A DNA stretch of 64,000 bases, taken from NCBI GenBank assembly GCA_044222065.1, contig JBGAOA010000011.1:1862-65861 (forward strand), given 5' to 3'. This document shows, piece by piece, positions 2,791 to 30,757 of this stretch. Positions within the stretch are counted from its first letter, which is position 1. Each line of letters begins with the position of its first letter. The notes below the pieces were generated by a model. It did no database searches. It was not told where the DNA came from and saw nothing but the letters and a program-made list of their open reading frames with translations. A program made the position numbers and the translations under genes. This DNA comes from Candidatus Eiseniibacteriota bacterium. Lineage in GTDB: Bacteria > Eisenbacteria > RBG-16-71-46.

Positions 2791-3689
2791 GCGTCGGTCT
2801 TCTTCGGCGCCTGGTTGAGCAGCCAGTCCCACGGGACGTAGCGGTTCGGGCGCTGGAGCTTCTGCGCCTCGATCGCGGCGCGCACCGGCTTCGGCGCGTA
2901 GCGCTTCACGAACGCCCAGGCGGCGACGTTTCCCCCGAAGTCGGCGGCGTACCAGCTGAAGAGCGTGCTGACGCCGACGCGCTTCGTCGCCGGGTCGAGC
3001 ACGAGGTGGCGCGGCAGCGCGAGCGCGTTGTGCGTCGCGAATTCGAGCTGGCGTTCGAGCGAATCGGCGCGGTAGGCGCGCGGCAGCAGCGGAGGGCATC
3101 CCATCGCGCCGCACACGAGCGCGAAGTGCACGCGCGGATCGAGCGTCGCGGGCGGCGTCTGGCCGGACGAGCGGTCGTAGCCGTCGAGGCAGAACGCGCG
3201 CTCGAAGTCGTCGAGCGAGTAGTTCACGCCCTCGACCTCGATCGTCTCGCCCTTGAAGAACAGCCCGGTGCGGAGGTGGATGTCCTGCACGCTCTTCCAG
3301 CGCAGCCGCCCGCGGCCGGGCACGAGCAGGTAGTCGGTGGCGTTCTCGAGCACGAGGAAGTTGTAGGTGTTGATCGCCCACGCGAGCCGCGTCGCGCGGT
3401 CCATGCGCGAGGGCGTCGCGGCGGCGAGCTGGCGGTGGATGCGCGCGAACGTCTCGGGCCGCGTGCGCACGTCGTAGAGGCGCTCGTAGTCGAAGCGCGT
3501 GTCGAGCGGCTCGCCGCGCTTCGAGACGACGACGAGGTAGTCGTCGAGCAGGCGCTGGTACTCGGGCACGTCGGGCACGACGAGCGCGGTGTCGGCGGCG
3601 GCGGCGCGCGCGGGGCGCGGCGCGCCGGCGCACGCGAGCACGACGGCGGCGGCGAGCGCGAGGTGCGGCGCGAACGATCGTGGCTTCAA
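2787..3689 (-). CDS. DUF547 domain secreted protein
   Basis: The 300-aa protein has a signal peptide (MKPRSFAPHLALAAAVVLACAGA) and DUF547-like conserved stretches (NTYNFLVL, HFALVCGAMGCPPL). Its TTG start overlaps the stop of the upstream Mo-oxidoreductase. Confidence 0.7.
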   Translation of the reverse strand: MKPRSFAPHLALAAAVVLACAGAPRPARAAAADTALVVPDVPEYQRLLDDYLVVVSKRGEPLDTRFDYERLYDVRTRPETFARIHRQLAAATPSRMDRATRLAWAINTYNFLVLENATDYLLVPGRGRLRWKSVQDIHLRTGLFFKGETIEVEGVNYSLDDFERAFCLDGYDRSSGQTPPATLDPRVHFALVCGAMGCPPLLPRAYRADSLERQLEFATHNALALPRHLVLDPATKRVGVSTLFSWYAADFGGNVAAWAFVKRYAPKPVRAAIEAQKLQRPNRYVPWDWLLNQAPKKTDA

Positions 3690-6034
3690 GAACGCTCTCC
3701 GGAGGCGGGATCGCGAACCGCGTCGCGCGTGAGCACGGGCGCGGGCTCGGGGATCGGTGCGAGGCGCGGCTCGACGCGCGCGGGGACTCCGGACGCGGCG
3801 AGGCCGGCGGGCTCGACGGTGACGAACGCATTGTAGTCGGGCTCGCCGGACACGGGGTCAAAGCGCCGTGAAATGAGCACGTTCGTCTCGGGCCAGTAGG
3901 CCTGCAGGTGTCGCGGTTTCATCGGGGCGATGCGCGCGATGCCGGTCCAGACGCCGACGTCGGAACGCAGCGTCACGGCGCCGCCGTCCTCGACGCCGAT
4001 CGCGCGCGCGTCGTCCGCGCACATCAGCACGTCCGAGCGCGACGGGCTGCCCATCAAGAAGTCGCGCGAGCCCCACGTGATGCTGTTGAACTGCTTCCCG
4101 CGCCGCGTCGTGAGCAGGAACCGGCCCGCGGGGATCACGGTCTCGGGGAGCCTCAGCGCCGTGAAGCGCGCGCGACCGCCCGGCATCTTCGTGAAGCCGT
4201 CCGTGAACAGATGCGCGCCGCCCCACTGCACCCACTGGCCCTCGCGCTCGAGCCGCTCGATGCCGGCGTAGAGGGGCATCGCGCGCGCGATCTCGTGGCG
4301 GATGTCGCGCGTGTCCTTCCACGGGAACGCGCGCGCGAGATCCGCTCGCGCGGCGAGCGCGACCTGCACGGGGATGCGCCACTCCGCGCGCGCTTCGGCG
4401 AAGCGCGGCCCGGGGATCTCGGGGGAGAAGCGGATGCGGCGCTCGGTGCTCGTCGCCGTGCCGCCGCCCTTCGTCTCGTAGCGCGTCTCGGCCGGCAGGA
4501 TCAGCACCGCGCGGCCGGGCAGCAGCGACGAGGTGTTGAGCACGATGTCCTGGTGGATGCGCAGCTTCACGTGCGAGAGCGCCTCCGCCATGTAGTCGCG
4601 GTCGGGCATCGTCTCGAGCAGGTTGCCGCCGAGCGAATAGAGCAGGTCCATCTCGCCGCGATGGGCGGCCTCGAGCATCTGCAGCGTGCGATGGCCGCGG
4701 TGCGTCGGCAGCGGCGCGCCCCACAGGTCCTCGAAGCGGCGCCGGTCGGGCTCGGCGTGGATCTCGTAGCCGCCGGGCAGCTTGTCGGGATCCACGCCGC
4801 ACTCGCCGCCGCCCTGCACGCCCGAGTGGCCGCGGATCGGCATCACGCCGCACTTTTCGCGGCCGAGGAAGCCGCGCGCGAGCGCGAGGTTCACGACCGC
4901 CTTCACGTTGTCCACGCCGAAGCGGTGCTGCGTGAGGCCCATGCTGTAGACGAGCACGCACGACTTCGCGTTCGCGAGTTCGCGCGCGAAGCGCAGCATG
5001 TCCTCGCGCGTCAGCCCCGAGTCGCGCTCGAGCGCTTTCCACTCGAGCGACTTCACGTGCGCGGCGGTCTCGGCGAAGCCGCTCGTGTGGCGCTCGACGT
5101 ACGCGCGGTCCACCCAGTCGTTCTCGACGAGGTGCCGCAGTGCGCCGTTCAGGAACGCGACGTCGCCGCCGACGGCGACCTGGAAGAAGTCGTCCATGAG
5201 CTTCGTGCCGAACACCGCGCTGCGCGTGTCGCTCGGCACCCAGTAGCGCTCGAGGCCGGGCTCCCGCATCGGATTCACGACGACGATGCGCGTGCCCTGG
5301 CGCTTCGCGTACGTGAGGTACTTCATCGTGACGGGCTGGTTGTTCGCGAGGTGCGAGCCCAGCACGACGACGAGGTCGCTGCCGATCATGTCCTGCAGCG
5401 AGCACGTCGGCGCCGGCACGCCGAGCGTGTCCTTGAGCCCCGACACACTCGCCGCGTGACACAGCCGCGCGCACAGGTCCACGTGATTCGAGCCCATCAA
5501 CCGCGCGACCTTCGTGAACGCGTAATAGGTCTCGTTCGTCGTGCCGCGCGAGGTGGCGAAGAAGCCGAGCCGCTCGCCCGGGACGCCGCGCAGCTCGTCG
5601 GCGACGATCGCGAGCGCCTCGTCCCAGCTCAACCGATGGAGCGGCCCGCCGTCGCCGCGGTGGATCATCGGGTACGGCACGCGTCCGAGCCGGTGGAGCT
5701 GCTCGTTCGTGAGCGCTCGCAGCGCGCCGACGTCACGCAGGCGCTCGTCCGGGATCGCGCCCATGGTGTTGAGCCTGAGCAAGCTCAGGCGCGTCTTGCA
5801 CAGGTGGTTGCCGTCGATGACGTCATCGCGCAGGCCCGGGGGCCCGAGCGAGCAGCCGTCGCACACGCCCTTCGTGAGGATGCGCCAGGCGTAGGGGAGG
5901 TTGTCGCGGTTCTCCCACGCGACCCACGCCATGCTGACGAAGGGGCGGGGACGCGGGTGGCGCTTGGGGCCGAACGGGATCAGGTCGCGGAGCCGGAAGC
6001 GGCCGCCGCTCGAGGTCATGGGTGTCGGTTCCAT
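3686..6034 (-). CDS. molybdopterin oxidoreductase alpha subunit, FdhF-like (YdeP/TIGR01701-type)
   Basis: Only the 820-aa extended ORF is in the track. An N-terminal Cys cluster (KGVCDGCSLGP..DGNHLCKTRL) and a molybdopterin-binding domain are present. The active-site position reads RLCHAASVSG, so Cys rather than Sec. The start is placed at ATG 6034 (MEPTPM...) by comparison with family N-termini; the upstream GTG at 6148 is judged an over-extension. Confidence 0.75.
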   Translation of the reverse strand: MEPTPMTSSGGRFRLRDLIPFGPKRHPRPRPFVSMAWVAWENRDNLPYAWRILTKGVCDGCSLGPPGLRDDVIDGNHLCKTRLSLLRLNTMGAIPDERLRDVGALRALTNEQLHRLGRVPYPMIHRGDGGPLHRLSWDEALAIVADELRGVPGERLGFFATSRGTTNETYYAFTKVARLMGSNHVDLCARLCHAASVSGLKDTLGVPAPTCSLQDMIGSDLVVVLGSHLANNQPVTMKYLTYAKRQGTRIVVVNPMREPGLERYWVPSDTRSAVFGTKLMDDFFQVAVGGDVAFLNGALRHLVENDWVDRAYVERHTSGFAETAAHVKSLEWKALERDSGLTREDMLRFARELANAKSCVLVYSMGLTQHRFGVDNVKAVVNLALARGFLGREKCGVMPIRGHSGVQGGGECGVDPDKLPGGYEIHAEPDRRRFEDLWGAPLPTHRGHRTLQMLEAAHRGEMDLLYSLGGNLLETMPDRDYMAEALSHVKLRIHQDIVLNTSSLLPGRAVLILPAETRYETKGGGTATSTERRIRFSPEIPGPRFAEARAEWRIPVQVALAARADLARAFPWKDTRDIRHEIARAMPLYAGIERLEREGQWVQWGGAHLFTDGFTKMPGGRARFTALRLPETVIPAGRFLLTTRRGKQFNSITWGSRDFLMGSPSRSDVLMCADDARAIGVEDGGAVTLRSDVGVWTGIARIAPMKPRHLQAYWPETNVLISRRFDPVSGEPDYNAFVTVEPAGLAASGVPARVEPRLAPIPEPAPVLTRDAVRDPASGERS

Positions 6035-6151
6035 GAGGGCGCGGAGGGTAGCACGGGCTTCCGAGAAGCCGGAGCTTGTCGGAGCAAGGCGTCGCGGAGA
6101 GAATGCCGCGGCCTTCGCGCCCCCGCCGGACTTCCCCGCGGAGGGCACGAT

Positions 6152-7736: not shown

Positions 7737-8432
7737 TCAGCGCGTGTCGGGGTCGGGCGCGGGCAGCGTGCCCGCGGGCGGGACCTTCGCGGGATCGCCG
7801 CGCCACACGACGTAGGAGTAGATCGCCAGTCCGAGTGCGGTGGCGGCCATCACGGCGATCGCCGCCGCCTTCGCGCTCTCGATGCGGGCCGCGGCCATCG
7901 CCATGATGAGCAGACCGTCGGCCACGAACGCCCAGCCGCCCACCCGGTGCGTGCGCAGCCAGGACTCCTTGCTCGAAAGCGTCCACGGCGTGCGGATCCC
8001 GGCGAACCAGTTCGGCCGCAATTTGCCGAGCAGGTTTCCGATCACGACGCACAGCGCACCGACGGCGAGCAGCGTCACGGTCGGCAGCGCGACGAGTGTC
8101 CCGCGCGCTCCGATCACGAGGCACACCTGCGCGACCGCCACGACGAGCAGCACGAGGAGCCGGATCGTTCGGTACGCGCCGGCGAAGCTCTCGTAGTTCG
8201 CGCGGCCCGGATCCACGCGCGGCAGCACGAGCATCACGGCGTACAGCGCGAGCGCGGTCAGCGGCAGGGCGAGCAGGCCCTGCGCGCGGCCGGCGAATCC
8301 GTCCGGCTCGCCCGCGAGGTTCCAGTGAACGGCGAAGCGGTCGGGGACCGCGTTCCAGCTCGCGAGCGAATACGCGATCGTGCCCGCGAGAACGAGCCAC
8401 ATCGGCCATTCGGTGCGCCAGTCGGGCTTCAT
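7737..8432 (-). CDS. DUF1648/SdpI-family membrane protein
   Basis: The 231-aa protein has a DUF1648-like N-terminus (DRFAVHWNLAGEPDGFA) and an SdpI/YhfL-like TM core. It overlaps the upstream ArsR gene by 4 nt. Confidence 0.65.
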   Translation of the reverse strand: MKPDWRTEWPMWLVLAGTIAYSLASWNAVPDRFAVHWNLAGEPDGFAGRAQGLLALPLTALALYAVMLVLPRVDPGRANYESFAGAYRTIRLLVLLVVAVAQVCLVIGARGTLVALPTVTLLAVGALCVVIGNLLGKLRPNWFAGIRTPWTLSSKESWLRTHRVGGWAFVADGLLIMAMAAARIESAKAAAIAVMAATALGLAIYSYVVWRGDPAKVPPAGTLPAPDPDTR

Positions 8433-8713
8433 GACGATTTCCCCTTTCTGCGCTTGCCCGCCGCGAGCAGGTCGAGCACCGCCGCGACGGCTTCTTCGAA
8501 CGTGGAGAGCTGCAGGCTGTAGACGATCGTCGTGCCGCGCCGTTCCGAGACGATGAGCTTCGCGTGACGCAGCACGTTGAAGTGGCCGGACAACGTGGAC
8601 TTCGCGAGCGGGAAGCTCTCGGCCAGCTCGCCGGCCGTCATGTCCCTGCGCCTGAGGAGCCGCAGGATCTCGCGACGCGTCGGATCGCCGAGCGCGCGGA
8701 ACACCTCGTCCAT
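8429..8713 (-). CDS. ArsR/SmtB family transcriptional regulator (SdpR-like)
   Basis: The 94-aa protein has the LGDPTRREILRLL..MTAGELAE...KSTLSGHFNVLRHAKLI HTH signature. Confidence 0.8.
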   Translation of the reverse strand: MDEVFRALGDPTRREILRLLRRRDMTAGELAESFPLAKSTLSGHFNVLRHAKLIVSERRGTTIVYSLQLSTFEEAVAAVLDLLAAGKRRKGKSS

Positions 8714-8889: not shown

Positions 8890-9897
8890 TTACCAGCGCG
8901 GGGGCTGGGCGAAGCCGAGTTCGCCGCGCTCGCGCTCCCACACCCGGTCGCGATTGCGTTCGCGAACCGGCACGATGCCGAGGGCGCGCAGGCCGCTCGA
9001 GTACTCGTAGCGCAGCGTGATGCGGTCGGTCGCGCCCGCCGCGGCGAGGAAGCGGGTCTGCTCGACGCGGTCCTGGCGGCGTTCGCCCCAGCCCGTGCCG
9101 GGCGCGGACTGCTCGGTCTGCGGCTGGCTGTTGTACGGCATCACGCCGCTCTTGCCCGGAGCCTGAGGCGCCGGCGCGACTTCACGGCGCGCTTCGTCGC
9201 GCGCTTCCCCGCTCGCATCGCCGCGCTCGCGCGCCATGCCGTCCTTGTCGTAGGGCTCGGGGCCGCCGTTGAAGCGCGGCAGCGTCCACGCGATCGGGCG
9301 CTGCTCACGGAAGGCGAGCACCCGGATCCAGCCCATGTCGCCGTTCGCCTGGCCGGTGCGCTCCGCGTACGAACGCTCCTCGTCCACGAACACGAACCGG
9401 CGGACTTCGTCGAGCGACGTGCGCCAGCCGCGGATCGTCGCGCTCTCGAACGGGTCGAGCACGTACATCGCCTCGCGGTTCGACAGGCTCGAGCGCTCGC
9501 CGTTCACGACGTTGAGGCCGTCCACGGCGATCAGCACGCCGACGCGCTCGCCAGTGTTGTTGCGCAGCTGGAGCGCGTAGTTGCGGCCCTTGAACGCCTG
9601 GAAGTAGCTGCGGTCCCACGCGCCGGCCTTGTGATAGAGCGGCGTCTCCGAGCCGCCGACGAGGACGCTCACGTCCACGAGCCGGCCGTCCACGTTCCAG
9701 TCGTAGTTCGACGAGCCGGGACGCCAGCGGACGTCGTCGGCGCGCGCCGCAGTGACGACGGCCGCGGTCGCGGCGGTCATCGTCGCGGCGAGCAGCAGCG
9801 CGCGCCACGCGGCGTGAAGGTGGTCGGAATTGAGGACGGCGGACTGGCCGCGATGGCGGGCCTCGGACGGGATCACTCGGCTGCGGTTCATGGTCAC
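8890..9897 (-). CDS. hypothetical secreted protein
   Basis: The 335-aa protein has a signal-peptide-like stretch (AWRALLLAATMTAATAAVVTAARA) and a varied, non-Arg-rich composition rich in W/Y/N/F. No family was recognised. Confidence 0.45.
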   Translation of the reverse strand: MTMNRSRVIPSEARHRGQSAVLNSDHLHAAWRALLLAATMTAATAAVVTAARADDVRWRPGSSNYDWNVDGRLVDVSVLVGGSETPLYHKAGAWDRSYFQAFKGRNYALQLRNNTGERVGVLIAVDGLNVVNGERSSLSNREAMYVLDPFESATIRGWRTSLDEVRRFVFVDEERSYAERTGQANGDMGWIRVLAFREQRPIAWTLPRFNGGPEPYDKDGMARERGDASGEARDEARREVAPAPQAPGKSGVMPYNSQPQTEQSAPGTGWGERRQDRVEQTRFLAAAGATDRITLRYEYSSGLRALGIVPVRERNRDRVWERERGELGFAQPPRW

Positions 9898-10174
9898 TCC
9901 TCCTGTGGGCTGTGCGCCTGATGGCCAGGGTCAGCACGAAGTACGCCGGGAGGGGTGTGCTATTCCTGCGGGAACTTTCCCGGGCGGAACGCATTGAAAA
10001 GGGCACGAACGACGCGAAATCGCCGCGGGGAAGGCATGGGCCCCCGTGGCGGTTTCGCCACAGGCGCGAGCCCGCCGGGGTCGATTTGTCCGTTCGAAGT
10101 CACGTCGCGTCCTCGGACGTGCGACGATGCCCCGCGCCCGACCGACACCGCGTCACCTCACCGAGGAGAACCGC

Positions 10175-11035
10175 ATGACCCGCTTCCCGCTCGCTCGAAT
10201 CCGCTTCGTGCTGCTCGCGGCGGTGGCCGCGGCCGCGCTCGCCGTCGCCGCGCCCGCCCGCGCCGACATCGCGCTCGGGGCCAGTGCGCCCGACTTCACG
10301 AAGAACTCCCTCGCGCACGGCCCGGTCTCGCTCTCGAACTACTCGGGCAAGGTCGTCGTGCTGTTCCTCATGGGCTATGCCTGACCCTTCTGCCTCACCG
10401 ACGGTCCGTCGGTGCAGCAGGACGTCCAGAACTACTACGCGACCCGCAATCCGGGTGAGGTGCAGGTGATCGGCGTGGACCTTTGGAACGGCTCGTTCGG
10501 ACAGCTGACGGGATTCCGCAACCAGACCGGTGTGACGTTTCCGCTGCTGCTGCTCGGTGCGACCGCGACGGGCGGGAACGTACAGACGCTCTACGGCACG
10601 TACGACAACTACGTCGTGATCAGCAAGCAGGGAAAGGTGCGCTACCACGCCGCGCTGACCTGGCCGCACGGTGACCGCTACCACCTCGACGAGATCCGCG
10701 GCGCGGTGGACACGCTCGTCACGCCGACCGCCGGTGTCGAAGAGGGCTTCAGCCTCGAGCGCGGCGGCCTGCGCGTGAGTCCGAATCCGTTCCGCACGTC
10801 GACGTCCGTGGAATTCGCGGCGCCCGCAGGCGCGGCGGCCGACGGCGACGTCGCGGTGCTCGACCTGCAGGGCCGCCGCGTCGCGACGCTGTGGCGCGGA
10901 CCGGTCGGGCAGGGCGGCGTGCGCGTGAGCTGGAGCGGCGCGACCGACGCGGGACACGCCGCGCCCGGCGTGTACCTCGTGCGCGCGCGCATCGGCGATC
11001 GCGTGTGGCGGCGTCGCGTGGTGATGTTCCGGTGA
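10175..11035 (+). CDS. candidate selenoprotein: secreted thioredoxin-fold (TlpA/redoxin-like) protein with UxxC motif and C-terminal Por_Secre_tail/FlgD-Ig-like domain
   Basis: ATG 10175 (MTRFPLARIRFVLLAAVAAA.., signal peptide) has GAGGAG 6 nt upstream. Reading through the in-frame TGA at 10382-10384 gives ...GKVVVLFLMGYA-U-PFCLTDGPSVQQDVQNYY..GEVQVIGVDLW. This aligns with redoxin ...VVLLNFWASWCGPC..., so the TGA falls exactly on the first Cys of CxxC. The two track ORFs 10046..10384 and 10412..11035 are in the same frame and separated only by this TGA. Confidence 0.6.
10382..10384 (+). other. in-frame UGA, putative selenocysteine codon
   Basis: This is the only stop interrupting the thioredoxin fold. 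It sits at the position of the nucleophilic Cys in the family. Confidence 0.55.
10396..10414 (+). promoter_or_regulatory. putative bacterial SECIS hairpin
   Basis: The sequence CACCGAC-GGUCC-GUCGGUG forms a 7-bp stem with a 5-nt apical loop containing GU. It begins 11 nt after the UGA, the spacing seen in E. coli fdhF. Confidence 0.5.
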
Positions 11036-11577
11036 GGCGCACGCTCGACGCGCTCGCGCTCGTCGCGGCGGCAGTGTTCCTCGCGTCTCCGATCGGCGCG
11101 CAGGCGCCGGCCGTTCCGGGACGCGGCGTCGCGCCCGCGTTCGAGGCGCGGTCCGTCGCGGGCGAGCGCATCGCGCTCGGCGAACTCGCGGCGAAAGGCC
11201 CCGTCGTGCTCGACTTCTGGGCCACGTGGTGCAAGCCGTGCCTCATGTCGCTGCCCGAACTCGAGCGGCTCGCCGCGAAGCACCGCGCGGACGGCGTCAC
11301 CGTGGTCGCGATCTCGATCGACGGGCCGCGCAACCAGGCCAAGGTGCGCGCGTTCGCGAACAAGCTCGGTCTCACGATGCCGATCGTCGTGGACCGCGAC
11401 GAGAGCCTTCAGTCGGCCTACCAGGTGAAGGCGGTGCCGACGACGTTCCTGATCGGGCGCGACGGCCGCATCGCGTGGTCGCGTCAGGGCTACCTGCCGG
11501 GCGACGCCGACGCGCTCGAGCGCGAACTCGCCCGCACGCTCGCCGCGGCCGCGCCCGCAGCCGGGACGACGCCGTGA
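11032..11577 (+). CDS. TlpA-family thiol:disulfide oxidoreductase
   Basis: A GTG start overlaps the upstream stop by GTGA. A signal peptide is followed by the VVLDFWATWCKPC redoxin motif. Confidence 0.75.
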   Translation: MRRTLDALALVAAAVFLASPIGAQAPAVPGRGVAPAFEARSVAGERIALGELAAKGPVVLDFWATWCKPCLMSLPELERLAAKHRADGVTVVAISIDGPRNQAKVRAFANKLGLTMPIVVDRDESLQSAYQVKAVPTTFLIGRDGRIAWSRQGYLPGDADALERELARTLAAAAPAAGTTP

Positions 11578-13136
11578 GCCGCGCGTTCCGGGCCGCGGCG
11601 CTCGCCGGCGTCGCGGCGGCGTTGGCGTGTGCGTGCTCGTCCGGGGCACGCGCCGGGGCGACGGGCTTCGAGGCCGCGCCCGCGCGCGTCTCGGTCACGA
11701 ACCTCGTCGAGGCGCAGTTCGGGAACGACCCGTTCGCCTCGTTCCTCGGCCAGCCGGAGAACGCGACGAGCACGTACGACCAGCTCTCGGCCGAAGTCGC
11801 GTGGGGCGGGTTGCTGTTCGGCTTCCGGCACGAGTCGCTCGACGACAGCCAGGACGAGGCCAGCGCGCGCGAGTTCACGCAGCGCTACGCCGAAGTGCGC
11901 GCGGACGGATTGCGCGTGCGCGCGGGCGACTTCTACTCGATCCTCGGCCGCGGGCTCACGTTCCGGGCGTTCGAGCTGCCGGGCGTCGTACTGCAGGATC
12001 CCGGCTCGCGCGCGCGGCGCTCGTTCTCGCGCGAGCGCGACGGCGTGCTGGCCGAAGGCGCGTGGGGGCCCGCGAGCGTGCGCGCGCTCAGCTCGAGCGA
12101 CGACGACGGCACGATCTCGGGCGGCGAATTCGCCGCGGACGTCTGGCGCGGCAGCCGCGCGGGCGTCACGTACGTGCGCACGACGAACGCGGGCGCGACG
12201 CTGAGCCGCGAGGCGGGCTCGGGGTTCCTCGAGCTCGACCCGTTCGCCCTCGCGGGCCTCTCGGCGGTCGCGCTGCCCGTATACGCGGAGTACGCGCAGC
12301 TCGACCGCTCGTTCGGCGAGTTCTTCGAACTTCGCACCGGCGACCGCGTGCCGCACGCGCTGTACGTCTCGACCGAACTCGTCGCGGGGCCGTTCGCGGC
12401 GTCGGTCGAGTGGAAGGACTACCGCGACTTCCGGCTCGGCACGAACGATCCGCCGTCGCTCGTGCGCGAGCACGCCTACGCGCTGCCGAACCGCGCGACG
12501 CACGTGCTCAACGCCGAGAGCGAACACGGCGTCCAGGCCGAGCTGTCGTGGGGCGCCCGCGGCTGGGGCGCGCTCACGCTGAACCACAGCCGCTCGGCCG
12601 GAACGCCCGCGGGCTCCGAACTGCGCTTCGAAGAGAACTATGCCGAGCTGCACGTCGCCCCCGAGCGCGTGGCGTGGCTCGAAGGGACCGCGTTCTTCGA
12701 CCGCGGCTTCGACACGTTCGCGTCGATTCGCGAGCGCGAGATCTACGGCGCGAGCGCGACCGTGCGCGCGTTCGGGCCGTGGTCGGCGACGCTCGACCTC
12801 GAGCGGCTCGACGCCGAGCGCCGCAACCTGTTCGCGCCGAACGAGGGCTGGACCGATCTCTACGCGAGCGTGCAGCTCGCGCGCGCGTCGTGGGGCAGCA
12901 TCGCGTGGCTGTGGCAGCGCACGACCGATCCGCTCGAGGAGGAGCCCGATCTCTTCGGCGGGACCGTGGACCCGCGCACGTATCGCGCGGTCACCGCCTC
13001 GGCCGTCCTCGGGCGCGCCCACACGCTGCAGCTGTTCGTCGGCGAACGCCGCGGCGGACCCGCGTGCACGGCCGGCACCTGCTACGAGGTGCAGCCGTTC
13101 GAGGGCGCGGAACTGCGGCTCGTCTCGCGCTTCTGA
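11574..13136 (+). CDS. hypothetical outer-membrane/secreted protein (beta-barrel-like)
   Basis: A GTG start overlaps the TlpA stop by GTGA. The signal peptide reads VSRAFRAAALAGVAAALACACSS. The protein has alternating aromatic/polar composition and ends ..ELRLVSRF. It lies inside a spurious long ORF in the track. Confidence 0.55.
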   Translation: MSRAFRAAALAGVAAALACACSSGARAGATGFEAAPARVSVTNLVEAQFGNDPFASFLGQPENATSTYDQLSAEVAWGGLLFGFRHESLDDSQDEASAREFTQRYAEVRADGLRVRAGDFYSILGRGLTFRAFELPGVVLQDPGSRARRSFSRERDGVLAEGAWGPASVRALSSSDDDGTISGGEFAADVWRGSRAGVTYVRTTNAGATLSREAGSGFLELDPFALAGLSAVALPVYAEYAQLDRSFGEFFELRTGDRVPHALYVSTELVAGPFAASVEWKDYRDFRLGTNDPPSLVREHAYALPNRATHVLNAESEHGVQAELSWGARGWGALTLNHSRSAGTPAGSELRFEENYAELHVAPERVAWLEGTAFFDRGFDTFASIREREIYGASATVRAFGPWSATLDLERLDAERRNLFAPNEGWTDLYASVQLARASWGSIAWLWQRTTDPLEEEPDLFGGTVDPRTYRAVTASAVLGRAHTLQLFVGERRGGPACTAGTCYEVQPFEGAELRLVSRF

Positions 13137-17064: not shown

Positions 17065-17514
17065 TTACTTGCCGCTCGAGAGTCGCATCGAGATCACGCC
17101 GCTCGAACCGTTGCCGGCGATGCAATACCTCGCCTGCGCGCTGTCGGCGTAGGCGACGATGCCCTGAACGGCGCTGAGCGGCGTGAGCGCCGGCGAGTAG
17201 GTCGGCTCGTCCACCCACGAGAGCCCGTCGCCCACGCGTCCGTCGAACGGATTGTGGAACGTCGCTCCGAGGCTCGGGAGCTTCGCCGCGACCCGCAAGG
17301 CGTCGTCGGCGTACCAGCCGTCGGCCTCGATGCCGTAGTCCTCGGCGGCGAGCTGGAACGTGTGCATGTTCTCGCGCGTCGCGGCTTCCTTCGCGCGATT
17401 GCGCATCGCGATGAAATTCGGCATCGCGATGGCCGCGAGCACCCCGATGATCACGATGACGATCATCAGCTCGATCAGGGTGAAGCCCTCGGCGTGCGGG
17501 CGGTGCGAGCGCAT
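17065..17514 (-). CDS. type IV pilin/pseudopilin (prepilin N-terminal methylation motif)
   Basis: ATG 17514 gives MRSHRPHAEG/FTLIELMIVIVIIGVLAAIAMPNF, the class III signal. Confidence 0.7.
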   Translation of the reverse strand: MRSHRPHAEGFTLIELMIVIVIIGVLAAIAMPNFIAMRNRAKEAATRENMHTFQLAAEDYGIEADGWYADDALRVAAKLPSLGATFHNPFDGRVGDGLSWVDEPTYSPALTPLSAVQGIVAYADSAQARYCIAGNGSSGVISMRLSSGK

Positions 17515-17764
17515 GCGCCGGGTATCGGCCGCCGGAGCGACTCCCTGCACCCGAAGTCTCGCGGGCAGGCCGGCCGAAGGGCCCGTCGCGGGCGTTGGCG
17601 GCAACGCGAGCCGCGCCCCCGACCCGGCGCCCGAGCCGGTCGCGTCACCCTCGATGCGCGGCGGTTTGCGCTTGGATTGCGCCGAGCGTCCCTCTAGCGT
17701 CGCGGCGTCGGCAGTGCCTCCAGAGTCCACGCCCGGATCCGGTCTCGAACCCGCGGAGGTCGTC

Positions 17765-20197
17765 ATGAGCCCGCTGCGCCGTTCCCCGTTCTTGCTCGCA
17801 CTCGGAGTGTCGCTGTTCTCGGCGGTCGGCCCGGCGCGCGAGGCGCGAGCGTCCTGGCCGCACGACCCGAGCGATTTCGTCGCCCTCGCACCGGCCCTCG
17901 GCGACACCTACCTGTTCGGATTCCGAGAGGCCGTGTCGGACGGGCAGGGTGGCGTCATCGCCGTGTACGACGTGATCGGGACTACCTGGGACGTCTATGC
18001 GCAACGCGTGGACGCCTCGGGGAACCGGTTGTGGGGCGCTTCCGGAGTCGCCGCGGCCTCCGGGCCCGGCAATCAGGACCAGTCCGTCGCGATCTCGGAC
18101 GGGCAGGGCGGGATCATCTTCGCCTGGGCGGACGACCGCGCGGGCGCCGCGAACACCGACATCTACGCGCAACGCGTGAACGCGAACGGCGTCCCCCTGT
18201 GGGGCACGGGTGGTGTGGCCGTCTGCACGCAGGCGGGAAATCAGACGGAGCCCGCGATCTGCTCGGATGGCCTCGGCGGAGTCGTCGTCACCTGGACGGA
18301 CGCGCGAGTGGGCCCGACGGACATCTACGCTCGCTTCGTCAACCAGGCGGGAGTGGCGCAGGGCGCCGCCGCGGGCATCACGATCTGCACGGCCGCGAGT
18401 GGGCAGGTCCACCCTCGCATCGTGCCGAGCTTCGGCACCGACTACATCGTCGTCTGGCAGGACGGACGTTCGGACGGTGGCGACATCTACGCGCAGAAGT
18501 TCTCGACGAACACCGGAACCGTGGCGTGGGCCGCGAACGGCGTCGCGATGTGCACCGCATTGAACACGCAGGAGTTCCCCGAGATCTGTCGCGACGGTCA
18601 GAACGGCGCCGTGGCGGTGTGGTGGGACTTCCGGAGCGCGACCACGATCTACGCGCAGCGCATCAGCTCGTCCGGAACGACGCAATACGCGGCGAACGGC
18701 ATCCAGCTCGGGCCCGCGGCGGGTTCCACCTCCGCGCAGATCGTCGAGGACGGCGAGGGCGGCGCGATCGTGGCCTGGACGGACTTCCGCTCCGTGCCGG
18801 GCGACATCTACGCGCAGCGGATCGAGTTGATGACGGGCCTCACGCAATGGACCTCGGGTGGAGCGATCGTGTGCACCGCGCTCGGCCAGCAGGCCGCCCC
18901 GAGCGTGGCGCCGGACGGCCGCGGCGGCGCGTACGTCGTGTGGCAAGACACGCGCTCCGGCGTGACGGGCCTCTACGGGCAGCACCTCGAGGGCTCCTTC
19001 GGCGCCAGGTTCTGGACGCAGAACGGCGTGCCGATCGCGACGGGATCCGACTACAGCGCGAATCAGACGCTCGTCAGCCGCGGTCCCGAGGGCGTGTTCG
19101 TCGCATTCTTCCGATTCGGCGTCGGGCCGTCGACCGCGGCCCTGCAGCGCGTCGACGGCTGGGGCTACCTCGGCGCGGAGCCCGCACTCGTTTCGGTGCG
19201 CGACGTCCCGAACGACCAGGGCGGTAAGGTCGTGGTCTCGTGGAACGCGAGCCCGCTCGACACCGATCCGCTCCTCTACTCGATCTACGAGTACCGGATC
19301 TTCCGCGCGGTTCCGACGACCGCGCTCGCGGTCGCGCTCCGCGAGCGCGGAAGCGCGCCGGCGGCGGCGTGGACGCCGGGCGCTGCGCCGCCACGCGCGC
19401 CGCTGCTCGCGCATCCGGAGCGGAACGGGACGTTCTCCTACTGGGAGTACGTCGCGACGACGCCCGCGAATCACCTCGACACGTACAGCCTCGTCGCTCC
19501 GACGGCCTCGGACTCGGTCGCGGGGTCGAATCCGCTGACGAGCTTCATGGTGCAGGCCCGCGGCAACGGGGTGGAGTTCTGGAATTCGAATCCCGACTCG
19601 GGCTACAGCGTGGACGATCTGGCGCCCGCGATGCCCGCGCCGTTCGCGGGCGCCTACTCGGCGGGCGCGACGGTGCTCGCGTGGGGCCCGAACGGGGAGT
19701 CCGACCTGGCCTACTACCGCCTCTACCGTGGCCACGGCGTCGGATTCGTTCCCGGCCCGGCGAACTTCGTCGCGGACCTTTCGACGACGAGCTTCACGGA
19801 CTCGCCCGGATCGGCCTACCTCTACAAGCTCGTCGCCGTGGATCTCCACGGAAACGTGTCTCCGCCCGCGCTCGCGATTCCCGGCGGAACGCTGCCCGTC
19901 GAGGACGTTGCGCCGAGCGTGGACTTCCTCGCACCCGCGGCTCCGACACCACTGCGCACAGCGTCGGCGACCCTGCGCTTCGGTATGGAGCGGGCAGGGC
20001 ACGCCCGGCTCGAGCTTTTCGACGCGCTCGGACGCCGCGTGCGAACGCTCTTCGATGCCGAGGCCGCGGCGGGCGAGCACCGCGTCGTGCTCGAGCGCGT
20101 GGGGCGCGACGGAATTCCGCTCTCGCCCGGGCTGTATCTCGCGCGGCTCGAGACGGCCCGGTTCCGCGCGACGCGGCGCATCGTGGTCGTGGACTAG
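17765..20197 (+). CDS. secreted tandem-repeat (about 54 aa x7) protein with C-terminal sorting/Ig-like domain
   Basis: ATG 17765 has GGAGG 6 nt upstream and is followed by a signal peptide. The repeat consensus is DG.GG..V.W.D.R.G..DIYAQR....G...W...GV..... Confidence 0.65.
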   Translation: MSPLRRSPFLLALGVSLFSAVGPAREARASWPHDPSDFVALAPALGDTYLFGFREAVSDGQGGVIAVYDVIGTTWDVYAQRVDASGNRLWGASGVAAASGPGNQDQSVAISDGQGGIIFAWADDRAGAANTDIYAQRVNANGVPLWGTGGVAVCTQAGNQTEPAICSDGLGGVVVTWTDARVGPTDIYARFVNQAGVAQGAAAGITICTAASGQVHPRIVPSFGTDYIVVWQDGRSDGGDIYAQKFSTNTGTVAWAANGVAMCTALNTQEFPEICRDGQNGAVAVWWDFRSATTIYAQRISSSGTTQYAANGIQLGPAAGSTSAQIVEDGEGGAIVAWTDFRSVPGDIYAQRIELMTGLTQWTSGGAIVCTALGQQAAPSVAPDGRGGAYVVWQDTRSGVTGLYGQHLEGSFGARFWTQNGVPIATGSDYSANQTLVSRGPEGVFVAFFRFGVGPSTAALQRVDGWGYLGAEPALVSVRDVPNDQGGKVVVSWNASPLDTDPLLYSIYEYRIFRAVPTTALAVALRERGSAPAAAWTPGAAPPRAPLLAHPERNGTFSYWEYVATTPANHLDTYSLVAPTASDSVAGSNPLTSFMVQARGNGVEFWNSNPDSGYSVDDLAPAMPAPFAGAYSAGATVLAWGPNGESDLAYYRLYRGHGVGFVPGPANFVADLSTTSFTDSPGSAYLYKLVAVDLHGNVSPPALAIPGGTLPVEDVAPSVDFLAPAAPTPLRTASATLRFGMERAGHARLELFDALGRRVRTLFDAEAAAGEHRVVLERVGRDGIPLSPGLYLARLETARFRATRRIVVVD
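17927..19115 (+). repeat. about 162-nt coding tandem repeats (7 copies, degenerate)
   Basis: DIYAQR-anchored units recur every 52-56 aa. Confidence 0.55.
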
Positions 20198-20931: not shown

Positions 20932-22362
20932 TCAGCCCTGCGGCTTCATGGCGCCGCCGGCTTTCTGGAGCGCCGGAAGCTCGCGCGCGTCGCGCGTGTG
21001 GTCCACGTAGGTCCGGTAGGTGGCGAAGTCGAAATCCGGGCTCGACTTCGCGTCGTGGCAGCCGCGGCACGTCGCTTCGGAGACGGCCGCCGTCGCGTTC
21101 GAGAACGCGTCGTGCTCCGTGCCCATGCCGTGGCAGCTCTCGCACTGCACGTTCGCCAGCTGCGGCGACTCCGTGCCGCTCGTGAAGCCGCCCGCCTGCC
21201 GGAACCCGACGACGTGGCAGCTCACGCACTCGGCGGACGCGTCCTTCTTCGTGCTCACGAGCGACGCCCACGCGTTCGCGTGCGCGGTCGTCTTCCACTG
21301 CTCCGCCTCCTTCGCGTGGCAGCGCGCGCACATCGCGTCGCCCACGTAGTGCTCGCGGTCGAGCGAGGAGTGCTCGAGCGCCTTCTCGCGATCCTCCTTG
21401 AGGCGCTCGTTCTCCTTCGCCTTCACCTGCGCGTTGATCGCGTCCTCGAACGACTTCACGTCGCGGAGCACGTCCTCCTTCTCGCCGACCTCGGGGCTCA
21501 GGATGAACGTCTCGGCCTCGCTCGCCGTGGGCTTGCCGGCGCCGTCCACCGTGAGGATCGCGCGTCCGATGTACTGGCCCTGCTCGCCGCCGTAGACGGT
21601 GAGCGTGTTCTTGACGACGCGTCCGCGAGGCAGCAGCGGCACGTTGCGGCCGGCGATCAGCAGGTCCACGCCGTCCACCGCCGTCACGAGGTCCTCGGAC
21701 TCGACCTTGCCGAGCTGAGACACGAGCACGACGACGGAAGCGCCGGCCTTGCGGGCGGCGGCGACCGCCTCGCGCGTCGCGGGCAGCGGGTCGCGCGTCT
21801 CGAGTCCGTCGCGCGACGGTCCGAGATCCACCTTGTCGCTCAGCACGCCGACGACGCCGACCTTCACGTTGCCGACCTGGCGGAGGACGAACGGCGCGAG
21901 CGCGGGTTTCTTCGACTGGCGGTCGTACAGGTTCGCGCACACGAGCTGCAGGCCCGAAGCCCTCGCGTTGTCGCGCAGGAAGTCGATGCCGAACTTGAGA
22001 TCGCGGTCGCCGACGCCCGCGACCTCGACGCCGACGCGGCGGAATCCGTCCATCATGAAGCGCGCGGTCTTGCGGTAGACGCTGTCGGCCATCTCGGGGA
22101 AGTAGCCGCCCGCGTCCACCTGGAGCACCTGCCCGTACTCGGAGCGGATGCTGTCGGCGTAGCTGCCGAGGCGGGAGAGCCCGCCTTTCGGAATGTGGCA
22201 GCCGCACGGGCTGGTCTTGCCCTTCACGTCGGTGGTGGACAGGACGACGAGCTTGTCGGGCGCGAGCACCGGGGCTTTCGCGCTGCGGGCGCCGGCGGGA
22301 ACGCTGAGGAGCGCGATCGCGACGAAGGCGAGGGCGCGCGAGACGGTCGAACGAGAGAACAT
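20932..22362 (-). CDS. tetraheme c-type cytochrome with N-terminal degenerate 5'-nucleotidase-like domain
   Basis: ATG 22362 is followed by a signal peptide. Four CxxCH motifs are present (CARCH, CVSCH, CESCH, CRGCH). The N-terminal 300 aa are collinear with the 5'-NT metallophosphatase fold but lack the metal ligands. Confidence 0.75.
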   Translation of the reverse strand: MFSRSTVSRALAFVAIALLSVPAGARSAKAPVLAPDKLVVLSTTDVKGKTSPCGCHIPKGGLSRLGSYADSIRSEYGQVLQVDAGGYFPEMADSVYRKTARFMMDGFRRVGVEVAGVGDRDLKFGIDFLRDNARASGLQLVCANLYDRQSKKPALAPFVLRQVGNVKVGVVGVLSDKVDLGPSRDGLETRDPLPATREAVAAARKAGASVVVLVSQLGKVESEDLVTAVDGVDLLIAGRNVPLLPRGRVVKNTLTVYGGEQGQYIGRAILTVDGAGKPTASEAETFILSPEVGEKEDVLRDVKSFEDAINAQVKAKENERLKEDREKALEHSSLDREHYVGDAMCARCHAKEAEQWKTTAHANAWASLVSTKKDASAECVSCHVVGFRQAGGFTSGTESPQLANVQCESCHGMGTEHDAFSNATAAVSEATCRGCHDAKSSPDFDFATYRTYVDHTRDARELPALQKAGGAMKPQG

Positions 22363-22599
22363 GCGGAACCTCGTGCGGTGAGTGGGTGCGGGGAACGACG
22401 CCGGCTCCGCGGGGAACGGAGCGTGCGGGTTCGCGAGTTGGACGGCCCGGCCGGAGCGAGCGTTGGGTCTCCGGCGGGGGAAACCCGGCCGGCTCAGTCC
22501 GGGCGCAGGGACGGGAGGGCGGACACGCCGCCCCGGGGGCGGCGGCCTCAACCGTATTCGGTGCGCGAGAAGGCCGGGCGAGCGGGCGTCACGGCGCGG

Positions 22600-23422: not shown

Positions 23423-25402
23423 TCAGGCCACGCGCTTCTGCTCCCAGACGCGGATCGGCAGGATGATCACCTGCACGCCCGCGAACTGGAGGCGGCGCTG
23501 GATCGAGAACGCGGTCTCGTGGTGCAGCGACCGCGTGAACAGATTCTCCTTCTGGAACACGAGCTGGCCCGCGAACACGACCGAGCGCCGGAACTCCTTC
23601 ACGAGGTCGAGCACCATGTGGTCGAGCTCCTCGATGAGGTCGGTGCCGAGCGTGTAGCGGTATTCCGCGTAGTAGCCCATGCGCTGCGCGAGGTGCACGT
23701 ATTTCTCGAGGTCGCCGCGCACCTTCTCTTCGAGCGCGTTCACGTCGGCGGCGCCCTTGAACTGCCCCGAGTCGACGAGTCCGACGGAACAGAACACGAA
23801 GTTCTTGAAGTGCTTCGGGAACATGCGCTGGACGCTGAGCAGCGTGTGGATCCCGAGGCCCGCGTACGACTCGACGAGCACGATCGCCGTCGGCCCCTCG
23901 GGTGCGAGGTCCGGCTGCTCGCGCGGCTCGGGCAGCGGCAGGTTCGTCAGCACCTCGTCGAGGCTCGACAGCATGCGGCGCACGCTGCGGTAGTGCGAGC
24001 GCACGATGAAGCAGAACGTCACGAGCAACGCGGTCGCGACGAGCGTGACCCAGCCGCCCTCGCGGAACTTCACGACCGACGTCACGACCAGGATGCCGCC
24101 GGTGACGAGCGTGCCGAGCGCCGCGACGAACATCGCGCGCCGCCAGTGCGCGAGGCGCTGCCGCTCGTTCCACCAGTGCCGCACCATGCCCGCCTGCGTG
24201 AGCGTGAACGTCAGGAACACGTTGATCGAGTACATGACGACCAGGATCTTCACGGCGCCCTGCGTGTAGAGCAGCGTGAGCATCGCGGCGATGCTCATCG
24301 TGAGCACGCCGTTCTGGGTCACGAGGCGCTCGGACAGGTGCGCGAAGCGCTTCGGCACCCACTGGTCCACCGCCATCGCGGCGAGCGTGCGCGGACCCGC
24401 CACGAAGCCGGTCTGGGCGGCGATGAACAGCAGCGCGCCCTCGGACAGCAGCGTGAACACGACGAACGCGTGTCCGAACTGGATGCCGCCGATGGACCAG
24501 CCGCCCGCGAGCGACTCCCACAGCACGGCGTTGAGCGTCTTGCCCGGTTCGTGCGAGACGGCGTGCAGCAGGTAGCACAGCATGATGCCGCCGGCCGTGA
24601 AGGCGAGCGAGATCGCCATGTAGAGCATCGTGCGCTTGCCCGTCTCGGCGCGCGGCTCGCGCAGGATGTCCGTGCTGTTCGAGACCGCCTCGATTCCGGT
24701 GAACGTTCCGCCGCCGAGCGAGAACGCCTTGAGGAACACGGCTGCGACCCCGAGCAGGCCCAGTTCGCCGATCGCCGAGCGCGTGTCCGCCATCGTGTCC
24801 GCGGCGAGGTGGTTCATCACCGCAGCCTTCGACAGCACGCCGAAGAGGATCAGGCCGACGTGCGTCAGCATGAAGATCACGAAGATCGGCAACAGCACGG
24901 TCACCGATTCCTTCACGCCGCGCAGGTTCAGCGACGTCAGGCCGAGCACCATCAGGAACTTCGCCGGCAGCAGCAGGGGCAGCCACGTCTCGGGGAGGAA
25001 CGAGAAGATCGTGTCGCACCCCGAGGCGACCGAGATCGCGATCGTCAGCACGTAGTCGATCGCGAGTGCCGCGCCCGACACGACGCCCGGCGTCGTGCCG
25101 AGCAGCTTCGTGCCGACGAGGTAGCCGCCGCCGCCGCTCGGGAACAACTCCACGATCTGGCTGTAGGACGCCGAGATCAGGAACACCGTCGCGACCATCG
25201 CGAGCGCGACGTAGAGCGCGAGGTGGGTGTGCGACCCGAGCGAGACGAACGCCTCTTCGGGGCCGTACGAGGCGGACGACAATCCGTCCGAGCCCAGGCC
25301 GACCCACGCGAAGACCGCGATGAGTGCGAGGCTGTGGTGAATGCGCGGGTCGAGTAAATTCTTCGGGCCTCCCAGGAGGAGGCCCTTCAATCGGTCGATC
25401 AC
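23423..25402 (-). CDS. APC-superfamily permease with C-terminal cytoplasmic domain
   Basis: The 659-aa protein has a 12-TM APC core followed by about 200 aa of soluble domain. Confidence 0.8.
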   Translation of the reverse strand: MIDRLKGLLLGGPKNLLDPRIHHSLALIAVFAWVGLGSDGLSSASYGPEEAFVSLGSHTHLALYVALAMVATVFLISASYSQIVELFPSGGGGYLVGTKLLGTTPGVVSGAALAIDYVLTIAISVASGCDTIFSFLPETWLPLLLPAKFLMVLGLTSLNLRGVKESVTVLLPIFVIFMLTHVGLILFGVLSKAAVMNHLAADTMADTRSAIGELGLLGVAAVFLKAFSLGGGTFTGIEAVSNSTDILREPRAETGKRTMLYMAISLAFTAGGIMLCYLLHAVSHEPGKTLNAVLWESLAGGWSIGGIQFGHAFVVFTLLSEGALLFIAAQTGFVAGPRTLAAMAVDQWVPKRFAHLSERLVTQNGVLTMSIAAMLTLLYTQGAVKILVVMYSINVFLTFTLTQAGMVRHWWNERQRLAHWRRAMFVAALGTLVTGGILVVTSVVKFREGGWVTLVATALLVTFCFIVRSHYRSVRRMLSSLDEVLTNLPLPEPREQPDLAPEGPTAIVLVESYAGLGIHTLLSVQRMFPKHFKNFVFCSVGLVDSGQFKGAADVNALEEKVRGDLEKYVHLAQRMGYYAEYRYTLGTDLIEELDHMVLDLVKEFRRSVVFAGQLVFQKENLFTRSLHHETAFSIQRRLQFAGVQVIILPIRVWEQKRVA

Positions 25403-25420
25403 CGGGGGAATCTAGGGTTT

Positions 25421-28527: not shown

Positions 28528-29424
28528 CTACGGCAGTCGCGCGACGCGCACGGTCTCGAGGCGTTCCTCGGACTCGAGTCGAACGAAGAAGAGCCCCGCG
28601 GGCACCCGCGTCCCGGCCGCGTCGCGACCGTCCCAGTCGACCGAGTGCGTTCCGCTCGTGGCGACGTCGTCGAACAGCCGGCGGAGCCTTCGTCCGGCGG
28701 CGTCGAGCACCGTCACGCGTACCCGGCCCGGTGACGTCGTCCCGAACTCGAGCCGGCTCGCGGAAGCCCCGCGCGCGGGATTCGAGGACGCGAGCCGCAG
28801 CCGGGACGCGAGTGCCGTGCTCGCGGGCGCGTCCAGGTTCGGCGATTCGAGCACGAGCGAGAGGTCGTCCTGGCCGCCGTCCGAACTCGCGCCGAAGCTG
28901 CGGCTCGCGAGCAGGTGAATCCGGGCGCTGCGGGTTCCGACGGGAAGCACGCGCTGATCCTGGATCTGCAGCCACGTGTTGAACGGTGCGAAGAGCGTCG
29001 TGCCGAACGAAGCGAGGGCAGAGGAAGCGTTCCGGTACTCGACGGTGAGCCCGCCGACGTCGTTCACGCCGGACGCTTCGTTCGAGCGACCCCATCCCGA
29101 GAAGTGCGCCGTGACGGCCCCGGCGTCGATCAACGACGCGTACGCATCGAGCGCCACGTCCTGCACGAGTTCGTGCGTGTACCCGCCGGAGGGCCCCGCG
29201 ACACCTCCCCAGAAGCAGAACGCTCCCGAGTGCGAGGCGCTCGAGACGTTGTACCCGTGGCCCAGGACGTCGACCCAGTCGGACGTGTTCCCGGTTTCGG
29301 CATCGCCGTTCCGGATCAGGTTGGGCGTGAGGCCGGCTCGGGCCGCGGGAACGGGCGCGAGCAGGAGCATGACAGCGAGGAGCGGGAGCGAGGCGCGGAC
29401 AGGTGCCGCGGACGACCGAGTCAT
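28528..29424 (-). CDS. secreted carbohydrate-binding-like protein with C-terminal sorting/Ig-like domain
   Basis: ATG 29424 has GGAGG 6 nt upstream and is followed by a signal peptide. The C-terminal tail reads RVRVTVLDAAGRRLRRLF..GLFFVRL. Confidence 0.6.
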   Translation of the reverse strand: MTRSSAAPVRASLPLLAVMLLLAPVPAARAGLTPNLIRNGDAETGNTSDWVDVLGHGYNVSSASHSGAFCFWGGVAGPSGGYTHELVQDVALDAYASLIDAGAVTAHFSGWGRSNEASGVNDVGGLTVEYRNASSALASFGTTLFAPFNTWLQIQDQRVLPVGTRSARIHLLASRSFGASSDGGQDDLSLVLESPNLDAPASTALASRLRLASSNPARGASASRLEFGTTSPGRVRVTVLDAAGRRLRRLFDDVATSGTHSVDWDGRDAAGTRVPAGLFFVRLESEERLETVRVARLP

Positions 29425-29606
29425 GAAAGGCCTCCACGAGGAGAGAACGACGCGTGCGGAACCCGTTGGACGGGCGGTGCTCCGTCGGACGAGGTCGCCC
29501 GCGAGAGCGGCGCCGAAGCGCGTATGAAAACGATAACGTTCGAGGGGGCATTTTCCGAACGGGGAGGCGACGCGCGCGGCGCCGCGCGCGGGCGTTCGGC
29601 GACGCT

Positions 29607-30728: not shown

Positions 30729-30757
30729 GGGCAGATGTTTAGCTAATCATCGAAATA

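Follow-up and report, generated by a model that had tools for sequence, protein, structure and literature searches.

Positions 10175 to 11035 (+ strand) of a 64,000-nucleotide stretch of Candidatus Eiseniibacteriota DNA (contig JBGAOA010000011.1, hereafter "the window") very probably form a genuine selenoprotein gene that current annotation splits into two. Its in-frame UGA (10382..10384, + strand) is the predicted codon for residue 70 of a redoxin, and selenocysteine (Sec) is by far the most likely residue to be inserted there, as judged from the codons of homologous genes, the alignment with ResA-type proteins and the presence of the same codon in four assemblies. The UGA takes the first position of a U-P-F-C motif (10382-10393), and a hairpin that begins 11 nt after the UGA is conserved at the RNA level in those homologues that carry the UGA.

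A single gene with an in-frame UGA

A preliminary description of this DNA, made from its letters, had drawn attention to two same-frame open reading frames (ORFs; 10046..10384 and 10412..11035, + strand) parted by a single TGA at 10382-10384, and had proposed that reading through this codon restores a redoxin fold. Both points hold: the ORFs lie exactly there, and the Pfam AhpC-TSA/Redoxin match runs over codon 70. The translation, this match across the TGA and full-length homologues with Cys together establish 10175-11035 as one gene, with 286 codons and a TGA terminator at 11033-11035. Translation likely starts at ATG 10175, which a Shine-Dalgarno-like GAGGAG (10163..10168, + strand) precedes by 6 nt. 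The gene then encodes, in order, a signal peptide, a redoxin domain, a linker and a C-terminal sorting domain of type IX secretion system (T9SS) kind. Independent sequence support for the TGA, which the preliminary description had wanted checked, was found in four independent SRA assemblies that carry the identical gene including the TGA; in three of these, the 861 bp show 0 mismatches.

Homologues carry either UGA or a Cys codon at the active site

A homologue search covering 5.8 billion proteins returned two populations. Members of the first are full-length (276-290 residues), are 44-60% identical to the window protein across its whole length, and all have Cys at the TGA column within the motif GY-x-C-P-x-C. 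The second, larger population consists of proteins of ~206-208 residues that cover only the C-terminal 72% and start with M/V-QQDI or M-[NT]-DGPS. At the nucleotide level we compared 62 related loci, of which 32 come from genomes of GTDB species (almost all bearing the label Candidatus Eisenbacteria) and the other 30 from JGI metagenomes, and found the active-site codon to be TGA in 40 cases, TGC in 11 and TGT in three. Looser searches added 10 TGA paralogues, for a total of ~50 TGA and ~15 Cys (TGC/TGT) genes, nearly all from Candidatus Eisenbacteria metagenome-assembled genomes (MAGs) and soil metagenomes. Homologues therefore have either a Cys codon or a TGA that is kept together with the hairpin, the very comparison for which the preliminary description had called, and this pairing of Sec and Cys forms is a feature of the family. 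The placement of the TGA at the first Cys of a CxxC motif, also proposed there, agrees with the family profile, in which C-P-x-C is aligned with the W-C-x-x-C of ResA-type proteins (2ls5, 3kcm, 3c71/1st9).

The ~50 TGA-type homologues share 45-60% protein identity, and their reading frames are intact, with coding-type substitution on both sides of the TGA. Over the 60 nt 5' of the TGA, entropy at codon positions 1/2/3 is 0.89/0.44/0.97, a pattern that matches both the one 3' of the TGA (0.83/0.56/1.03) and that of the Cys-type genes, which indicates that the N-terminal part is translated within the same protein. The nine codons from the TGA to a possible GTG start at 10412 (PFCLTDGPS) are likewise conserved as protein and homologous to the Cys forms. 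In a neighbour-joining tree the Cys forms are dispersed among the Sec forms, which suggests repeated switching between the two residues. Sec is the majority state in this redoxin family (~3:1 over Cys).

Several loci hold more than one copy of the gene. TGA-type paralogues stand in tandem in locus L016 (three, at 3056, 4095 and 5075) and in L019 (two, at 10157 and 11165), mixed neighbours occur in L021 (TGC at 739, TGA at 1723) and L045 (TGT at 10184, TGA at 11135), and both tandem copies of L032 (2496 and 3476) have TGC. A second paralogue clade shows the variant motifs GCT-U-P-x-C and DYT-U-E-F-C. Two TGA-type genes lie on short contigs (3.4-3.5 kb) binned to other taxa, L013 to Candidatus Limnocylindria and L014 to Planctomycetota; the former is near-identical to L010 and the latter to L003, both of them Eisenbacteria loci, so that an error of binning seems likelier than horizontal transfer. 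When 566 kb of Eisenbacteria DNA were scanned for additional genes combining a TGA with a bacterial selenocysteine insertion sequence (bSECIS), the search yielded only further paralogues of the redoxin family, the remaining candidates being out-of-frame shadow ORFs or true stops.

A conserved hairpin in the register of a selenocysteine insertion sequence

The hairpin CACCGAC/GGUCC/GUCGGUG (10396..10414, + strand) begins 11 nt 3' of the TGA and constitutes the predicted upper stem-loop of a selenocysteine insertion sequence (SECIS), with 7-8 bp and an apical loop GGUCC (or GUC). Its position, its GU-containing loop and its likeness to the SECIS of E. coli fdhF were all as the preliminary description had them. 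RNAfold predicts an 8-bp stem of -11.6 kcal/mol within a longer helix (z = -2.98 against shuffled sequences).

Conservation of the hairpin depends on the codon that precedes it. Across 38 distinct TGA-type sequences there is no variation at the third codon positions +17, +20, +23, +26 and +29, whereas the same positions in Cys-type genes encoding the same DGPSV peptide have an entropy of 0.95-1.79 bits; on average, third-position entropy within the hairpin is 0.15 bits in the TGA forms vs. 1.04 in the Cys forms. Immediately beyond the hairpin, third positions are variable in both sets alike. Covariation is seen as well: the outermost stem pair (15-33) is CG in 27 and GC in seven sequences of a 35-sequence alignment, and this swap from C-G to G-C is brought about by two synonymous changes, in a Leu (CUC/CUG) and a Val (GUG/GUC) codon. 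Among the other stem pairs, one switches from C-G to A-U (in one sequence) and a third alternates between G-U and A-U. The observed pairing values were reached by none of 500 shuffles and by no register slide. Taken together, these comparisons demonstrate a constraint on the hairpin that acts at the RNA level and is tied to the TGA forms.

The published bSECIS model considers loop, stem, UGA-to-loop spacing and folding energy (PMC13188914), and the hairpin agrees with it on all four counts, with a GUC/GGUCC loop (that is, a G-U or G-G start), a stem of 7-8 bp, a spacing of 18-19 nt and -11.6 kcal/mol, as do 37 of the 38 TGA-type sequences. Moreover, 41 related loci each contain the composite pattern TGA-N14-CGACGGTCNGTCG a single time, and in every one the match falls on the active-site codon. 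Set against the real E. coli fdhF sequence (UGA = codon 140), the register is the same: in both, the hairpin starts at nt 15 counted from the U of the UGA (an 11-nt spacer), and GGUC occupies nt 22-25. The two differ in stability (-4.2 kcal/mol for the fdhF minihelix vs. -11.6 here) and in form, as the stem is here a perfect, G+C-rich one of 7-8 bp that lacks the bulged U, and the lower helix is not conserved.

Weighing selenocysteine against alternative readings of the UGA

A number of observations weigh against decoding of the UGA as Sec. When E. coli SelA, SelB and SelD were used as tblastn queries against the window and all loci (threshold 1e-3), neither the 64 kb of the window nor the 566 kb of related flanks gave selA, selB or selD, and ARAGORN and Rfam searches of the same DNA found no tRNA-Sec. 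Nor did we find a literature report of Sec use in Eisenbacteria, although absence from the literature searched is not proof of absence. The hairpin of the window taken by itself is only modestly unusual (the z-score of -2.98 given above), and its 15-nt core, with up to two mismatches, occurs at chance frequency in 70% G+C DNA, so that it is the comparison with other sequences that carries the case. The SECIS model check for which the preliminary description had called came out in two ways: the published bSECIS model is matched in full, but no Rfam SECIS family matches within 10300-10500, even at E <= 10, and the Rfam matches that do occur there (msiK, P17, SpR20) are at chance level only. Most bacterial SECIS elements, however, fall outside the scope of the Rfam models. 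A candidate extended (lower) helix around the stem-loop (10388..10422, + strand), tentatively drawn from the minimum free energy structure, is only ~60-70% paired across homologues and is therefore treated as doubtful. The components of the T9SS that would handle the C-terminal domain (SprA/Sov, PorU, PorV, GldKLMN) were likewise not seen among the window genes, so the case for export across the outer membrane comes from the sorting-domain match.

Among other explanations, the least improbable is a SECIS- and SelB-dependent recoding of the UGA to Cys or another residue, for example by a recoding tRNA that resembles tRNA-Sec but is charged with Cys, a route proposed for a few bacteria (the tRNA(ReC) literature). 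The comparative data show hairpin-dependent, site-specific recoding and none of them identify the residue, and the genes for Sec biosynthesis were not found in the window or flanks. Such recoding nonetheless seems improbable here: the site is that of the nucleophilic Cys of a CxxC motif, the classic position of Sec, the register of the SECIS equals that of a bona fide Sec element (E. coli fdhF), Cys-recoding systems are very rare, and recoding merely to Cys would be pointless because TGC and TGT forms exist. Less probable still is that the UGA is a true stop which yields a 69-residue N-terminal peptide and a 207-residue protein started at GTG 10412, or that it is passed by low-level near-cognate read-through helped by the hairpin. 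Gene callers do annotate the split in this way, and the GTG lies inside the hairpin; against this, two products would cut the thioredoxin fold between beta1 and alpha1 and lose the active site, the nine codons that separate the TGA from the GTG show conservation of the encoded protein, restart codons lack such conservation (gene calls start at differing positions), and the constraint on the RNA is bound to the presence of the TGA.

The two remaining explanations deserve hardly any weight. One A-to-C or A-to-T change would turn the TGA into a Cys codon, and MAG assemblies do have errors, yet the four independent assemblies agree on the TGA; a pseudogene is equally hard to reconcile with ~50 TGA-type homologues whose frames are intact and whose substitutions are of the coding type on both flanks. 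We regard pseudogene and error as already refuted for practical purposes. The idea that this lineage has reassigned UGA to Trp or Gly throughout its genome, as UGA reassignment is known for a few bacterial lineages (e.g., PMC13462651), is already refuted as well, given that TGA is the commonest stop in the window (it terminates 27 of the 42 called genes, including the redoxin gene itself and the next gene) and that the Cys-type homologues all have Cys, not Trp or Gly, at this column. The recurrence of the TGA in independent assemblies and its use as the commonest stop rule out both sequencing error and codon reassignment. Selenocysteine thus remains the reading that we adopt in what follows.

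Domain organization and predicted export

The protein would begin with a Sec-type signal peptide (10175..10264, + strand), MTRFPLARIRFVLLAAVAAAALAVAAPARA followed by D, recognized by inspection of residues 1-30 from a basic n-region, a hydrophobic core and an A-x-A cleavage site (...AAPARA, cut before D). The equivalent N-terminus in a modelled homologue is a helix followed by a low-confidence stretch. The thioredoxin-fold redoxin domain (residues 35-159; 10277..10651, + strand) is identified by Pfam matches over residues 35-157 to PF00578 AhpC-TSA (45 bits against a cut-off of 26, E-value 1e-11) and PF08534 Redoxin (39.4 against 26.6, 7e-10), as well as by PDB profiles, an AlphaFold2 model and Foldseek. 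The structure model is that of the closest natural Cys homologue (P0002; mean predicted local distance difference test score, pLDDT, of 88.2), and not of the window protein itself. It shows a strand at 52-58, a helix at 63-83 with the CxxC (62-65) at its N-terminal end, and a separate C-terminal beta-sandwich at 189-274; the CxxC site, between beta1 and alpha1, has a pLDDT above 90. With this model Foldseek retrieved 2ls5 and ResA at template-modelling scores of 0.84-0.87 (target-normalised) and a root-mean-square deviation of about 2.3 Å. The product therefore has a redoxin/thioredoxin fold, and its redoxin domain is ResA-like in fold but outside the curated ResA subfamily (NCBIfam NF002854, 34.8 bits against a cut-off of 170).

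Two further features of this domain stand out, together spanning about 10604-10699 of the window. An invariant Asp (D144) is aligned, at moderate alignment posterior, where 3kcm has the conserved Pro of its VPET, the place of the conserved cis-Pro that faces the CxxC in ResA/TlpA-type proteins, and residues 155-175 form a nearly invariant, His/Arg-rich and family-specific block, VRYHAAL-WPHGNRYHLNEIR, which might help to form the active site or be a binding site for a metal or a substrate.

The C-terminal beta-sandwich (residues 201-283; 10775..11023, + strand) is of the T9SS type A sorting/FlgD immunoglobulin (Ig)-like kind, according to both profile matches and the model. At the extreme C-terminus, residues 201-283 match NCBIfam TIGR04183 (T9SS type A sorting) with 27.3 bits against a cut-off of 23, residues 211-271 match Pfam FlgD_ig with 27.3 against 27, and the C-terminus of the family profile is aligned with FlgD Ig-like domains. 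A hidden Markov model (HMM) derived from the family detects the same domain at the end of eight or more further ORFs in the window (E 1e-7 to 1e-24), on the + strand at 17339-20194, 25358-27028, 30743-30952, 38955-40487, 40491-41450 and 55449-56483 and on the - strand at 28531-29916 and 32259-34445, which suggests a large secretome sorted by such C-terminal domains. The combination of a signal peptide with a C-terminal domain common to other proteins of the window thus proved to be as the preliminary description had it, and the final location of the product would be outside the cytoplasmic membrane, possibly at the cell surface. A beta-lactamase-family protein is among the ORFs that end in the sorting domain.

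A possible course of decoding and catalysis

By analogy with E. coli fdhF, the hairpin at 10396-10414, with its GGUC loop 19 nt past the UGA, would recruit SelB-GTP-Sec-tRNA(Sec), such that the UGA at 10382 would be decoded as Sec during translation and a single secreted selenoprotein would be made from 10175-11035. This product would combine a Sec-type signal peptide, a ResA/TlpA-like fold with U-P-F-C at the N-terminus of alpha1, and a T9SS-type tail by which it would pass the outer membrane and reach either the cell surface or the medium. Sec would then replace the Cys that comes first in the CxxC motif and acts as its nucleophile, and its selenolate would be expected to attack a disulfide, sulfenate or peroxide of the substrate (the likely chemistry), after which a selenenylsulfide would form with Cys73 and be re-reduced, possibly by way of a co-transcribed periplasmic TlpA-like protein.

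The redoxin gene heads a conserved operon

The next gene (11032..11577, + strand) encodes that candidate partner, a thiol-disulfide oxidoreductase of the TlpA/ResA kind whose motif is the ordinary WCKPC (Pfam AhpC-TSA, 89.5 bits, Redoxin, 79 bits, and Thioredoxin_8; NCBIfam ResA-like). A search for contigs encoding exactly the same TlpA-like protein returned no record. It is followed by a DUF6029 protein (11574..13136, + strand; a partial match to Pfam PF19494 of 48 bits), which is probably an outer-membrane beta-barrel, to judge from a C-terminal Phe signature (it ends in ...LVSRF). GTGA overlaps at 11032-11035 and 11574-11577 couple the three genes. On the other side, a divergent gene (8890..9897, - strand) encodes a conserved 335-residue protein with no Pfam match; roughly half of the loci have this gene upstream in the opposite orientation, with 47-61% identity. 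The order 335-residue protein/redoxin/TlpA-like/DUF6029 is kept in most loci with enough flanking sequence, of the Sec type and the Cys type alike. A coupled operon of the redoxin gene with a WCKPC TlpA paralogue and an outer-membrane protein had been suggested from the overlaps in the preliminary description, and it is syntenic.

Relation to known selenoproteins

UxxC proteins with a thioredoxin fold belong to the commonest types of selenoprotein in bacteria and have been catalogued since 2004-2008. Known types include the Prx-like thiol:disulfide oxidoreductase (PF00578), the Redoxin family protein (PF08534), a UGC-containing TlpA and GOS Prx-like 1-3, and NCBIfam holds three models of redoxin-type selenoproteins, PrxU (NF040737), ResA-like WAxxUGC (NF041054) and TsoB (NF045694). 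The window protein shares with them a thioredoxin-fold redoxin domain, Sec for the first Cys of CxxC, the occurrence of Sec/Cys homologue pairs and a bSECIS directly downstream within the coding region; it differs in its T9SS sorting domain and in the restriction of its family to Candidatus Eisenbacteria. It scores far below the NCBIfam cut-off for PrxU (21.4 bits vs. 270) and has no match to WAxxUGC or TsoB. On the HMM of the family, eight published GOS Prx-like 1/2/3 sequences score a mere -1 to 18 bits, vs. 200-460 for members (the window's own TlpA paralogue, at 20.5 bits, stands above them), and their motifs are W-U-P-x-C, F-T-U-G-x-C and W-U-G-x-C, as opposed to GY-x-U-P-[FY]-C here. Cys forms are also far more numerous in the GOS families, whereas Sec prevails here by ~3:1. 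Since no NCBIfam selenoprotein cut-off is reached and the GOS Prx-like sequences score low on the HMM, the family is, by these sequence comparisons, a separate clade of a known kind, as placed against the eight GOS sequences and the NCBIfam models.

Beyond selenoproteins, the best profile and structural matches are to ResA/TlpA/DsbE proteins (1st9, 1su9, 3c71; 2ls5 of B. thetaiotaomicron; 3kcm of Geobacter), which are likewise exported and have their CxxC at the N-terminus of helix alpha1. The window protein differs from these in having Sec for Cys, D144 at the Pro position (with moderate alignment confidence), the VRYHAAL-WPHGNRYHLNEIR block and the additional C-terminal sorting domain. Periplasmic selenoenzymes are known. 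We found no literature report of a selenoprotein with a T9SS tail, an absence which, again, is not proof. The nearest precedent in architecture is HBP35 of P. gingivalis, a thioredoxin-motif protein whose C-terminal domain directs secretion by the Por/T9SS pathway and surface attachment (PMC2907840, PMC3120885). HBP35, set beside the window protein here by description, likewise joins a thioredoxin-motif domain to a T9SS C-terminal domain; it differs in being a Cys protein of Bacteroidota that binds haem, and it is thus a precedent for the architecture only.

The novelty claimed in the preliminary description therefore stands in part. UxxC redoxin selenoproteins have long been catalogued and HBP35 anticipates the architecture, while the features that look new are its clade, its phylum and the joining of Sec to a T9SS tail. 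We consider it conceivable, albeit rather doubtful, that this is at once the first selenoprotein cargo of a T9SS, placing a selenolate outside the cell, and the first evidence of Sec in Eisenbacteria, with Sec as the majority and probably ancestral state. If so, the resistance of selenium to irreversible over-oxidation would offer a selective reason for Sec in an oxidising extracytoplasmic location, and, were the T9SS tail functional, the protein would be a natural selenoenzyme exported past the outer membrane. Decoding of the UGA as Sec would by itself imply a dependence on selenium in a widespread, uncultured phylum of soil and groundwater. On the practical side, the reading corrects a systematic mis-annotation, as dozens of public Eisenbacteria gene calls are split into pieces of 69 and 207 residues, the latter annotated as "hypothetical / FlgD Ig-like / T9SS sorting domain", and it supplies a clean, deeply sampled Sec/Cys family with a near-invariant, E. 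coli-like SECIS that should be a useful training set for SECIS and selenoprotein predictors. Our understanding of Sec decoding and of thiol-redox catalysis is left unchanged, and the protein is not mechanistically surprising.

Other features of the window

The remainder of the window has ordinary chromosomal content, with neither Sec nor T9SS machinery. As a possible second selenoprotein we considered a molybdopterin oxidoreductase of the FdhF/YdeP type (3686-6148, - strand) and rejected it, as it has Cys (CARLCHAASVSGL) at the Sec-equivalent site, where E. coli FdhF reads CARVUHGPSV; the one classic selenoprotein candidate of the window is therefore a Cys form. A 95-nt tRNA-Arg(ccg) called by ARAGORN (38087-38181, - strand) is located within the coding region of a TonB receptor and is not backed by an Rfam tRNA match; it is almost certainly a spurious call in G+C-rich DNA, and not a tRNA-Sec.

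That TonB-dependent receptor gene (37055-39082, + strand) is directly preceded by a cobalamin riboswitch (36733-36955, + strand; Rfam RF00174, 89.8 bits), and the products of two genes after it (39084-40490 and 40779-41453, + strand) end in the same FlgD-Ig/T9SS-type sorting domain. Together these probably form a B12-regulated uptake operon with surface-exposed accessory proteins. On the - strand, genes for ArsR/HTH_20 regulators overlap downstream genes for membrane proteins in two places (8429-8713 with 7737-8432, the latter SdpI/DUF1648-like, and 30393-30728 with 29962-30396), and these pairs look like repeated small modules. Finally, a 539-residue protein with multihaem cytochrome c554/c3-type domains (20932-22551, - strand) hints at a capacity for extracytoplasmic electron transfer.

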